Notes under the pieces: generated by a model
Database searches by the model: none
The model's input: the letters and a program-made list of their open reading frames with translations, nothing else
What the model was told of the DNA's origin: nothing
Made by a program: the position numbers and the translations under genes
Shown: positions 41,676 to 42,868 of the stretch, piece by piece
Position numbering within the stretch: position 1 is the first letter of the stretch
Layout of the letters: the number at the start of each line of letters is the position of its first letter
IMG/VR virus record: IMGVR_UViG_3300045988_166471
Coordinates: 2,366 to 66,365 of that record
Direction: 5' to 3' (one strand)
DNA: 64,000 bases
Source: a virus

Positions 41676-41997
41676 TATATTTAAACTACACATTAAGAAT
41701 AAACAATAGTATGGTAGCTATGACCCGGTTTCATGGTCGCTTTACAGAATGGCAGTCAAAGGTTGTTATCCTTCGCCTAAAATCTCCATCCAAACCTCAA
41801 ATGAGGGAAACATCTAAGCCGTATCATTCAGTTTTCCTGACTCATTTCGACTTGCGGATTTGTTACCTACCGCCGTACTACCTACTAACCTTTCTATGTT
41901 AGCCCCGACCCGTCTATTCAACTATCGTTAGCTACTATTGTTCAATGGTGCCGGTGGCGGGACTCGAACCCGCATGGTGTTGCCACCGAGGGATTTT

Positions 41998-42735
41998 CTT
42001 GCTACTCTATGTCACCATAGCCACATTTCTGTGTTGTAGTCTGGAATACGTCTTTATCATATGCACGACTTGCACTTAGATAGTTGGTATATACTCTCTA
42101 CACATTTATTTGGAACAATTTTTTCCACGATAAGAAGAGGTTTTGGCATGACAATTTGGACATAATAATTGGAAATTATCTAATTCATTATGAAAATGAT
42201 TTCCATCTTTATGATGAAGTTCTAAAGGAATTGGGTCTCCTAACCATTCGGTTAATCCACAACATTCACATTTGTACTCTTTATAACCTTCATCAAGAAG
42301 TTTTTTTCTTACTTTATTACTCTGTATATCAATACTTTTTTCCAAGTATTCTAACAAAGATAATTCATGTCCATTGGGTTTTGACAATCCTTTACAACCT
42401 TGATTTCCAGCATATTCAAGGCCAAGCTTTTTTAATACTGGATTAATTGTTTTAGGATTACAACCCAATTCTCTTGCCATTTGAGCTTTAGTCTTACCTT
42501 CAGTAATCCATTGCTCAATTTCTTCTTTGCGTTCTAAAATATCAGTTCTCATTTATATTACCTCTCTTTCATTATTATTTAAAAATTAAAAGAGGCATTT
42601 TAATGAGTGTCGTCCAATTTTTTAGAATGTGTTCCAAAACTTAGCACGGCGTTCTCTTAGCCATTCACCGTTTTAGCCAACTTCTACTCTAAGAGTTTCC
42701 TCTTAGGCACTCCATTTTAACGTTTGCTAAGTCAA
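41998..42735 (-). mobile_element. Putative group I self-splicing intron in tRNA-Leu(UAA), carrying an HNH homing-endonuclease ORF
   Basis: Insertion sits exactly between U34 and A35 of the anticodon, the classic tRNA-Leu(UAA) group I intron site. Exon ends in U, intron ends in G. GNRA hairpins (CACAGAAATGTG, CTATGGTGACATAG) and an AGACTAC element lie near the 3-prime end. Intron core not verified. Confidence 0.5.
42106..42552 (-). CDS. HNH homing endonuclease (intron-encoded)
   Basis: 148 aa. CECCGLTEW...LELHHKDGNHFHN...LLCPNCH matches HNH with Cys zinc site. Confidence 0.7.
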   Translation of the reverse strand: MRTDILERKEEIEQWITEGKTKAQMARELGCNPKTINPVLKKLGLEYAGNQGCKGLSKPNGHELSLLEYLEKSIDIQSNKVRKKLLDEGYKEYKCECCGLTEWLGDPIPLELHHKDGNHFHNELDNFQLLCPNCHAKTSSYRGKNCSK

Positions 42736-42868
42736 AAGTCCCTTGTGTCTACCATTCCACCACACCGGCAAATACACTATATTAATTAATCAAGACTCAA
42801 TTTTGAAAAACAAATAATTCATTTTAGGTGAACTTTCAAAAGTAAATTCGCTGCATGAGTCTTATACC

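Follow-up and report, generated by a model that had tools for sequence, protein, structure and literature searches.

Position 34/35 of tRNA-Leu is a standard insertion site of group I introns, and the Nostoc intron at this site served as the splicing control in a 2026 survey of 4,934 complete bacterial genomes that found 333 group I introns in transfer RNA (tRNA) genes, 81% of them of subgroup IC (PMC13011429). The same survey described HNH genes in tRNA-Leu(UAA) introns of Bacteroidota and found that introns longer than 500 nucleotides (nt) carry an endonuclease gene (PMC13011429). As for phages, a 2014 review placed all introns then known in protein-coding genes despite the many tRNA genes of phages (PMC3984707), and the abundant group I introns of the large, recoded crAss-like phages likewise lie in protein-coding genes (PMC7886860). 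Here, we describe a 738-nt insert between U34 and A35 of a phage tRNA-Leu(UAA) gene, found in a 64,000-nt stretch of DNA (positions 2,366 to 66,365 of the IMG/VR virus record IMGVR_UViG_3300045988_166471; hereafter, the window). We read this insert, with a probability of about 85%, as an active and mobile group I intron, IC3-like and of the sort that occupies the anticodon loops of bacterial tRNAs.

The IC3 intron of Nostoc (Anabaena) PCC 7120 has the same host gene and the same 34/35 site as the window intron, is likewise preceded by U and ends in G, and shares with it a short P1 helix formed by nucleotides of the anticodon arm and the order of the core helices. The window intron differs from it in having a pseudoknot instead of the P5 hairpin, a branched P9 (as proposed below) with two GNRA-capped hairpins, an open reading frame (ORF) in P6, and a phage genome as its home, and in going unrecognized by the Rfam model RF00028. 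The Bacteroidota introns, to judge by their description, match the window intron in gene, site, and endonuclease class; they are chromosomal, phages lay outside the survey, and the pseudoknot is unmentioned there, whereas the window intron is phage-borne (PMC13011429). The “enigmatic” tRNA introns of the Lak megaphages (Devoto et al. 2019), left unclassified and with no endonuclease gene reported (PMC6784885), are again comparable by description, as they lie in tRNA genes of TAG-recoded gut phages and show presence/absence polymorphism; in contrast to them, the window intron has an identified ribozyme class, core, and endonuclease. In a literature search of incomplete coverage, in which absence is not proof, no account of a phage tRNA gene with a group I intron was found. 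The window element is a known class of intron at a known site, and what is new is the combination of a phage tRNA host, an endonuclease of the type of T5 HegA, and a core with a pseudoknot for P5.

Introns of phages T4 (td, nrdB, and nrdD), SPO1 (DNA polymerase, with I-HmuI), and Twort resemble the window intron, whose self-splicing is predicted, in combining a self-splicing intron with a phage homing endonuclease encoded in a peripheral loop. They reside in protein-coding genes and belong mostly to subgroup IA, whereas the window intron sits in a tRNA gene; one relative of the latter (L126; L numbers designate the loci of our collection) carries an I-HmuI-like protein. The Azoarcus tRNA-Ile(CAU) intron, an IC3 intron in which the L2 GAAA loop docks into a P8 receptor, CCUAAG/UAUGG, and whose J6/7-P7 segment is GUGUAGAGACUA, is small and tRNA-borne like the family described here, and one family member in a CAU tRNA (L042) has the same CAU/GUG P1. 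It differs from the window intron in its tRNA and site (36/37), its regular P5, its unbranched P9, and its lack of an ORF.

The split tRNA-Leu(UAA) gene

The gene and all parts of its intron lie on the minus strand of the window. The 5' exon, tRNA positions 1 to 34 ending in U34, runs from 42769 to 42736 (GCCGGTGTGGTGGAATGGTAGACACAAGGGACTT, i.e., GCCGGUGUGGUGGAAUGGUAGACACAAGGGACUU), and the 3' exon, from A35 to an encoded CCA, runs from 41997 to 41946 (AAAATCCCT...CACCGGCACCA, in full AAAAUCCCUCGGUGGCAACACCAUGCGGGUUCGAGUCCCGCCACCGGCACCA). Joined in silico, they make an 86-nt tRNA-Leu(UAA), which has a long variable arm and is folded canonically by ARAGORN. An earlier note, made from the letters of the window and a list of its ORFs, had described two halves of this tRNA 738 nt apart, and every element of that description was borne out on the minus strand. 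The split gene was missed in the window by ARAGORN in its default mode and by the Rfam tRNA scans. The intron mode of ARAGORN recovers it and places the intron at the program's own default position; because the intron is forced there, the anticodon label that it returns is wrong.

An empty-site allele sets the boundaries independently. At 1389 to 1474 of the 157.5-kb viral contig L200, tRNA-Leu(UAA) is uninterrupted and matches the joined exons in 86 of 86 positions. Its neighborhood is that of the window (suppressor tRNA(CUA), tRNA-Leu, and tRNA-Gly), and the 400 nt downstream, including tRNA-Gly, are 92% identical. In the alignment of the two, the gap is exactly 738 nt and falls between ...GGGACTT and AAAATCCC...; no base is common to both junctions, and therefore U34 is the last nucleotide of the 5' exon and G that of the insert. 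The insertion point between U34 and A35, the exon-final U, and the intron-final G, all proposed in the earlier note, are thereby confirmed. The intron accordingly extends from 42735 to 41998, where the terminal G (omega-G) is located; every family member has a G before the 3' exon. The expected ligated-exon junction of the window tRNA is GGGACUU followed by AAAAUCCC. Within the 738 nt, an ORF of 148 amino acids (aa) is flanked by noncoding segments of 183 and 108 nt (291 nt in total).

The intron family and its group I core

Related loci were gathered with the HNH protein and with a 24-nt segment of the intron; one exact 21-nt pattern lying in the conserved 3' block, GGCTATGGNNACATAGAGTAG, matched 110 viral contig stretches and 68 contigs of bacterial genomes, for a total of more than 110 viral and 68 bacterial copies. 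The bacterial copies come chiefly from Oscillospiraceae and Ruminococcus, including R. albus 8, R. flavefaciens FD-1, and the chromosome of R. callidus ATCC 27760. Almost all copies interrupt tRNA-Leu(UAA) at the identical site. The 78 distinct viral introns measure 208 to 1109 nt, with 35 of them at most 420 nt long (and without an ORF) and 37 longer than 650 nt.

Comparison of introns and exons across these loci reveals a pattern of mobility. The window intron is 96 to 97% identical to those of L005, L006, and L010, which lie in tRNA-Leu exons only 70 to 72% identical to its own. The opposite is seen in L031, with exons 94% identical to those of the window, an intron 54% identical, and an ORF at another position; L005 and L007 have identical exons and introns only 76% identical, and L200 is intron-less despite its identical exons. 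This polymorphism, both of presence or absence and of variants, indicates that the intron is mobile. Copying by homing into an intron-less allele may be the route, as suggested indirectly by the near-identical introns in diverged tRNAs, the empty site of L200, and the selection on the ORF described below.

Homology to recognized group I introns comes from members scored by the Rfam model Intron_gpI (RF00028; gathering cut-off, 50 bits). The family includes introns with an ordinary P5 hairpin and introns, here called leader-paired, in which the loop closed by P4 is complementary to the beginning of the intron (next section). The scored members are L294 from Massiliimalia (62.7 bits) and L263 (37.9 bits), both with a leader of the hairpin type and a loop that was not parsed; L097 (54.3 bits), with a weak P5 hairpin; L039 (41 bits) and L107 (31.6 bits), with a P5 hairpin; L090 (49.1 bits), in which P5 was not parsed; and L133 (43.3 bits), which is leader-paired. 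The Rfam alignment of L133 places P3, P4, P6, P8, P9, and the AGACUA/UAGUC strands on blocks that are present in the window. The 3' core of the window intron is 84% identical to that of L133, 77% to that of L097, and 65% to that of L090, and its 5' core is 81 to 84% identical to those of the chromosomal introns of R. albus and R. flavefaciens.

Co-variation supports the same core. P3, P4, and P7 were taken from all parsable copies via conserved anchors and fixed offsets, without adjustment of individual sequences; mis-anchored rows were retained and so count against the structure, and four rows (L036, L058, L089, and L135) were removed, as an insertion in J7/3 displaces their P3' strand. The resulting set has 43 distinct sequences, the window among them, and 88.9% of its P3/P4/P7 cells hold standard pairs, versus 28 to 47% when the partners are slid by 1 to 3 columns. 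Changes on both sides occur in 13 of the 17 pairs, with 82 double-change cells compared to 23 in shuffles, and none of 500 shuffles reached any of the five co-variation measures. All six columns of P3 change on both sides (e.g., AGUUGG/CCAACU, AGGUGG/CCACCU, AUCUCC/GGAGAU, and UGUGCG/CGCACC); its pairs 2 to 6 are standard in 91 to 95% of the sequences and the outermost column in only 19 of 43. P7 is 94.6% paired and has four co-varying pairs; its versions include GAGUAU/GUAUUC, GACUAU/AUAGUC, GAGCAU/GUGCUC, GAUCAU/AUGAUC, and GCACAU/AUGUGC. The interlocked P3/P7 pseudoknot is the hallmark of the group I class, and a G-C next to an A-U pair in P7 is the arrangement of its guanosine-binding site; in 42 of the 43 sequences P7 opens with a G-C pair, in 36 of the 43 its second pair is A-U, and the predicted counterparts in the window are G42096-C42044 and A42095-U42045. 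RNAalifold, run on 12 full-length ORF-less introns, independently recovered the anticodon stem of the exons, P2, P4, P7, P8, and P9a, with compensatory changes.

In the window, these helices are intact. P3 (AGUUGG, 42682 to 42677, with CCAACU, 42087 to 42082) is paired at 6 of 6 positions, P4 (CGGUG/CGCCG, with its enclosed loop at 42670 to 42647, the block to which the L133 alignment assigns P4) at 5 of 5, including one U-G, and P7 at 6 of 6, including two G-U. The 5' strand of P7, GAGUAU (42096 to 42091), follows J6/7, GUGUAGA (together, 42103 to 42091), and its 3' strand is GUAUUC (42049 to 42044). P2 is a hairpin with a GAAA tetraloop, CUAAGAG-GAAA-CUCUUAG (42706 to 42689), with compensatory changes at most pairs. 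P8 (42081 to 42056) co-varies, with ACC/GGU in relatives and AUC/GAU in the window, and includes the motif UCUAAG/UAUGA, which we take to be a variant of the 11-nt GAAA-tetraloop receptor (CCUAAG/UAUGG in most relatives). P6 (42638 to 42109) holds the ORF; as read from the sequence, its distal stem is a 9-bp perfect complement of UUUGGAACA (42638 to 42630) and UGUUCCAAA (42117 to 42109), the latter made up of the last codons of the ORF, and ORF-less relatives have a short hairpin at this position. The P9 region (42040 to 42001) is proposed to form a three-way junction in which ACUAC/GUAGC encloses P9a (CACA-GAAA-UGUG, 42033 to 42022), which co-varies, and P9b (CUAUG-GUGA-CAUAG, 42020 to 42007); these are the two GNRA-capped hairpins that the earlier note had recognized near the 3' end of the intron. 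An assignment of ACUAC/GUAGU as P7 was rejected, as it leaves two hairpins at the position of P3' and only 2 nt before the omega-G; the identity of P7 was settled on the co-varying GAGUAU/GUAUUC instead.

P1 joins exon ACUU and the first intron nucleotide, U1 (42739 to 42735), to the internal guide GGAGU (42713 to 42709), which lies directly 5' of P2 in all members; U34, at 42736, forms a wobble pair with G42712. The guide GGAGTG suggested in the earlier note was thus essentially right. In tRNA-Leu hosts, exon ACUU and guide GAGU are invariant. In other hosts, where the match was read by eye and not formally scored, the guide tracks the exon end: ...UCU is matched by GGA in Arg(UCU) and two CUA tRNAs (L082 and L055), ...GGUCU by GGACU in CUA tRNAs with the intron at 33/34 (L054 and L091), ...CAU by GUG in a CAU tRNA, and ...GACU by GGUU in a Leu(UAA) with the intron at 33/34. 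The splice-site U-G pair is preserved in every type of host tRNA examined. An extended P1 with a bulged G (GAGU-G-CC against GGGACUU) was discarded, since L008, with the exon CUGACUU, has no compensating change.

Amber-suppressor-type tRNA(CUA) genes of other phage contigs are split by the same intron family in L054, L086, and L091 (at 33/34), in L082 and L055 (at 35/36), and in L078, and in such phages the production of the suppressor would depend on splicing. Further hosts are Arg-UCU at 36/37 (L048, L069, and L079, and probably also L110, where the 3' exon matches theirs and the 5' exon was not located), the CAU tRNA of L042 (36/37), Ser-UGA (L041), Ile-UAU (L090), and Leu-UAA at 33/34 (L087). 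The host genes of L067, L071, L075, and L102 were not assigned; a few family copies have 3' flanks that do not resemble tRNA and may lie in other genes. The family mostly escapes both tRNA finders and Rfam, so that tRNA-Leu(UAA) genes, and sometimes those of suppressor, Arg, Ile, and Ser tRNAs, are probably under-annotated.

In the pathway that we propose, the tRNA-Leu gene would be transcribed within the minus-strand tRNA array, and the intron would fold into a group I core, in which the P3/P7 pseudoknot connects the P3-P8 domain with the P4-P6 domain. Pairing of guide GGAGU with exon ACUU would set the U34-G wobble at the 5' splice site, which free guanosine, held at the P7 G-C pair (42096/42044), would then attack. 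The terminal G (41998) would next replace the guanosine, and exon ligation would yield an 86-nt tRNA identical to that of intron-less relatives.

Removal of the insert by a splicing endonuclease and ligase acting on a bulge-helix-bulge, as in archaea and eukaryotes, or the landing of a free-standing endonuclease cassette in the gene, appears extremely improbable. Relatives of the HNH protein do stand free between the tRNA genes of T5 and of crAss-like phages. Against either version, no bulge-helix-bulge was seen at the intron junctions on reading the sequence, the ORF is surrounded by 291 nt of conserved, co-varying noncoding RNA that occurs without an ORF in dozens of copies, and members of the family score as group I introns in Rfam.

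Pairing between leader and P4 loop in introns without a P5 hairpin

The window intron has no local P5 hairpin of the canonical IC3 kind. The loop closed by its P4, AAUGGCUAAGAGAA, is 14 nt long and without local structure, and 6 of these nucleotides, GCUAAG (42661 to 42656), pair with CUUAGC (42731 to 42726), nt 5 to 10 of the intron. Across the family, for which 5' splice sites were located by a search guided by the anticodon stem, an ordinary P5 hairpin is present in 27 distinct introns, none of which shows leader pairing, and an unpaired loop of 12 to 15 nt in 39. Complementarity to the leader (intron nt ~3 to 10, 6 to 8 bp, in a constant register) is found in 38 of these 39, the exception being L097, with its very weak hairpin. 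Members of the hairpin type begin with AAUAAUUUGAGC, presumably like the Anabaena intron.

The viral copies contain 15 versions of the leader and loop strands, among them CUUAGC/GCUAAG (window), UGUAUUC/GAAUACA, UGUGUUU/AAACACA, CCCUGAU/AUCAGGG, CCUAAC/GUUAGG, and UCAACUA/UAGUUGA, and the bacterial copies add UGUUUGU/ACAAACA (Ruminococcus), UCGUGG/CCACGA, and UGUGCUU/AAGCACA. In 20 distinct sequences compared in a fixed register, 91.4% of the cells of this helix are paired, versus 25 to 43% when slid; 7 of 7 pairs are doubly changed, and the co-variation score is 0.866 compared to 0.237 in shuffles, none of 500 of which reached it. Another control, the longest complementary run, was uninformative and was set aside in favor of the fixed-register count; runs of at least 6 bp occur in 17% of shuffled and 31% of non-cognate pairs, a result of allowing G-U pairs and of the relatedness of the versions.

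The leader strand sits in the P1 loop, three or four nt past the splice site. It is structurally plausible that the helix which it forms substitutes for P5 and holds P1 against J4/5; in the pathway above, intron nt 4 to 10 would pair with the P4-closed loop and so keep the splice-site helix beside J4/5. No description of such a pairing at P5 was found in the literature searched, which, given its incomplete coverage, is weak evidence of novelty. We put forward tentatively, at somewhat short of even odds, that these introns form an unrecognized subclass of tRNA-borne group I introns, in which a pseudoknot of leader and P4 loop replaces P5 and tethers the 5' splice site to J4/5. Such a subclass would often be met in tRNA-Leu(UAA) genes on the chromosomes of Ruminococcus and Oscillospiraceae and in large recoded phages of the gut and rumen, and it would be nearly invisible to Rfam and so probably unannotated; as relatives split tRNA(CUA), suppressor output and the code switch could depend on the folding of a ribozyme. 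The leader-loop helix would then be a natural experiment in ribozyme architecture, with a core helix supplied by a strand next to the splice site.

The reduced P5 region also invites the thought that splicing needs the help of a protein, which could be a factor of the host or, acting as a maturase, the intron's own product. Many group I introns with reduced peripheral elements do depend on proteins, the P5 hairpin is absent here, and the encoded protein has an N-terminal helix-turn-helix (HTH) domain. We consider such a dependence unlikely, if less so than the other alternatives discussed in this work. The 35 distinct members of at most 420 nt have the same core and no ORF, and therefore the intron's own protein is not generally required; the co-varying leader-loop helix plausibly replaces P5 in structural terms, and the L2 GAAA loop, the P8 receptor, and two more GNRA loops suggest a tertiary fold that would be self-sufficient.

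Several observations weigh against an active group I intron in the window. Rfam release 15 reports no intron family there at gathering scores, nor, on 1.8 kb, at an E value of up to 10, so the Infernal search that the earlier note had proposed as a check gave no intron match. Five ORF-less homologs, including the 256-nt L028, likewise gave no group I match, and six of seven leader-paired copies tested (the window, L028, L043, L118, R. albus 8, and R. flavefaciens FD-1) were missed, the seventh, L133, scoring below the threshold. The core alignment consists of anchored fixed-length segments with constant spacers and is not a full structural alignment. Two pairs of the window P7 are G-U, and the proposed closing stem of P9 contains an A-C mismatch (GUAGC, as against GUAGU in most relatives). 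P9b and this stem are invariant because they lie inside the search pattern, and the three-way P9 is therefore only proposed; RNAalifold offers J6/7 UGUAG as an alternative partner for CUACA. The encoded endonuclease lacks the C-terminal 84 aa of T5 HegA. Finally, we infer splicing and catalysis from sequence.

Some of these points would fit a decaying relic, i.e., a former group I intron that no longer splices and leaves a tRNA-Leu pseudogene serving mainly as the carrier of a selfish endonuclease gene, the more so as the host cell presumably provides its own tRNA-Leu(UAA). The silence of Rfam, the G-U pairs in P7, and the mismatch in P9 could all be taken that way. Nevertheless, all core helices of the window intron are intact, as are the G-C and A-U pairs of the guanosine site, exon identity to a functional-looking intron-less allele is 100%, and near-identical copies occur in several phage genomes and in two tRNA backgrounds. 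The failure of Rfam extends to the whole leader-paired group, including the short chromosomal copies of R. albus 8 and R. flavefaciens FD-1, and therefore reflects the model rather than decay. A relic is improbable on this evidence, and somewhat more so than a protein helper.

The RF00028 miss is a blind spot of the model for leader-paired copies and concerns detection, not a defining biological property. Once other members had scored and the misses had proved specific to leader-paired copies, the Rfam null was dropped as evidence against group I; had it been taken, by the criterion of the earlier note, for the sign of a tRNA pseudogene, a group I intron would have been wrongly discarded. The group I interpretation holds because the core is 65 to 84% identical to members scored by Rfam, co-variation supports P3/P7, P4, the P7 G-C pair, and P1, and the intron shows the polymorphism of a mobile element. 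The suggestion of the earlier note that the insert is a group I intron is thus upheld on grounds other than the test it had proposed. It follows that phage tRNA genes can host genuine mobile group I introns that bear endonucleases. For the specialist, the class itself is familiar, and the value lies in the size of the family, its invisibility to standard tools, its phage tRNA hosts, including suppressors, and a testable structural variant.

Cultured Ruminococcus strains carry the leader-paired form in chromosomal tRNA-Leu(UAA) genes: the introns of R. albus 8 (L264) and R. flavefaciens FD-1 (L279) are ~238 nt long and ORF-less, and neither has an Rfam group I match at an E value of up to 1. 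Many contigs of Oscillospiraceae metagenome-assembled genomes among L257 to L324 also have introns in chromosomal tRNA-Leu(UAA). The intron-bearing genes of Ruminococcus are probably unannotated or misannotated.

Endonucleases and genome context

The 148-aa ORF in the P6 loop (42552 to 42106), reported in the earlier note as an HNH protein, is real. It encodes a putative homing endonuclease with an N-terminal HTH and a C-terminal HNH domain and matches PHROG 10822 and 14736 with E values of about 1e-26; the Pfam HNH match, at 18.7 bits, is below the cut-off of 21.4, and a PDB sequence search with the ORF gave no match. Over its whole length, it is 51% identical to residues 1 to 143 of T5 HegA/F-TflIV, its nearest characterized relative (E value, 1e-49), in an alignment that covers the HNH segment LELHHKDGNH...N...LLCPNCHA. 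Two papers that cite Akulenko 2004 describe HegA/F-TflIV as an H-N-H endonuclease that is site-specific and whose gene adjoins those of tRNAs (PMC2330249 and PMC10644984), and one of them attributes F-TflI and F-TflII, along with F-TflIV, to that work (PMC2330249). The window protein shares with HegA (and its phage BF23 counterpart) the order of HTH and HNH domains and a place amid phage tRNA genes. HegA, however, has 227 aa and is free-standing, whereas the window protein ends at the equivalent of residue 143, inside the P6 loop. Free-standing relatives are also found in the tRNA clusters of crAss-like phages.

Codon differences between this ORF and those of L005, L006, and L010 are mostly synonymous (synonymous to non-synonymous, 16:3, 16:4, and 14:3), and the ORF is therefore under purifying selection; it contains no TAG codons. 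A hairpin predicted from the single sequence (42607 to 42548) covers the Shine-Dalgarno sequence AGAGAGG (42567 to 42561) and the AUG, with a folding energy of -19.2 kcal/mol (z = -3.24) that none of 200 shuffles equaled; such burial of both signals would limit expression of the endonuclease. The likely role of the HTH-HNH protein would be to nick or cut the intron-less tRNA-Leu(UAA) of co-infecting phages, whereupon repair would copy the intron in. For both the activity and the target of this enzyme, as for the structural role of the pseudoknot, we infer from sequence what the RNA and protein would do.

Other members of the family carry other endonucleases. A LAGLIDADG_2 protein (E value, 1.7e-30) is encoded in J7/3 of L036, an I-HmuI-like protein with HNH_3 and NUMOD domains in L126, and other HNH proteins in the P6 or P1 loop (L011 and L052 are among the loci with differing endonucleases). 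As both the proteins and their positions differ, one ribozyme scaffold must have been invaded repeatedly. With at least four unrelated types of endonuclease on a single scaffold, including one with 51% identity to an enzyme that stands free in T5, the family makes a clear case of the combining of free-standing endonucleases with introns. Several intron ORFs of the family look truncated in the standard code, which may reflect in-frame TAG.

Just upstream of tRNA(CUA) and 400 nt upstream of the endonuclease, a 102-aa ORF with a Zn-ribbon and an HTH (43257 to 42949, minus strand) matches the C-terminal part of PHROG 15471, annotated as “HNH endonuclease” (E value, 6e-7), and, weakly, residues 152 to 210 of T5 HegA (E value, 0.016). 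From these matches, it may be the detached C-terminal domain of a HegA-like protein.

The window belongs to a large phage with phage-type topoisomerase II genes. When 24 kb of the window were compared with GenBank phages by megablast, only matches of tRNA size appeared, so the phage has no close relative there and the lineage is uncultivated; related contigs are 84 to 216 kb long. The data agree with the TAG recoding assumed in the earlier note: when TAG is read through, the summed length of ORFs of at least 150 aa rises from 12,655 to 20,579 aa, and several frames of more than 450 aa contain 5 to 18 in-frame TAGs. Long minus-strand frames with 9 to 18 in-frame TAGs and no other stop are located at 37915 to 41463, 59251 to 61818, 754 to 2496, 54275 to 55762, and 56222 to 58003. 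The topoisomerase II genes (12692 to 15073 and 16233 to 17942) have none. Reassignment of TAG appears to be confined to a subset of genes.

The suppressor tRNA that had been named as a neighbor of the split gene is also present. It is a tRNA with a CUA anticodon at 42943 to 42872 (minus strand), scored by Rfam at 38.9 bits and missed by ARAGORN, with the atypical T-loop GGCAGCA. Its sequence bears no relation to that of the tRNA(CUA) at the same position in L003 and L200; close relatives thus differ by a swap at the suppressor slot. No functional link was found between the intron and this adjacent tRNA.

Other structured RNAs accompany the tRNA genes. A RAGATH-33 RNA (RF03102) at 41932 to 41820 (minus strand; 135 bits against a cut-off of 120.4) begins 13 nt past the CCA of tRNA-Leu. 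An above-threshold RAGATH-33 lies likewise 13 nt past the intron-bearing tRNA-Leu of L035, and the matching stretch of L200 is 92% identical; given this conserved spacing and presence, the RNA looks like part of the tRNA array transcript. A full-length ROOL RNA (RF03087; 323 bits) is found between tRNA genes at 45248 to 44655 (minus strand), and ROOL also occurs near the tRNA arrays of the related contigs L028 and L039. In L039, the segment beside ROOL (4332 to 4208, minus strand) has sub-threshold matches to cow-rumen-3 (48.2 bits; cut-off, 86.7) and DUF3800-XI (33.9 bits; cut-off, 37.8). Close to the cluster of tRNA, ROOL, and RAGATH-33 genes in the window, a 512-aa protein (35358 to 33820, minus strand) matches PHROG 850, “RNA-binding protein,” from end to end (E value, 4e-132). 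In L005, L006, L007, and L010, at about 4827 to 4969, the intron mode of ARAGORN gives a tRNA-Thr(UGU) with a 68-nt insert, which could be an ARAGORN artifact and which recalls the Lak megaphage tRNA-Thr(TGT) with its “intron that may encode a tRNA.”

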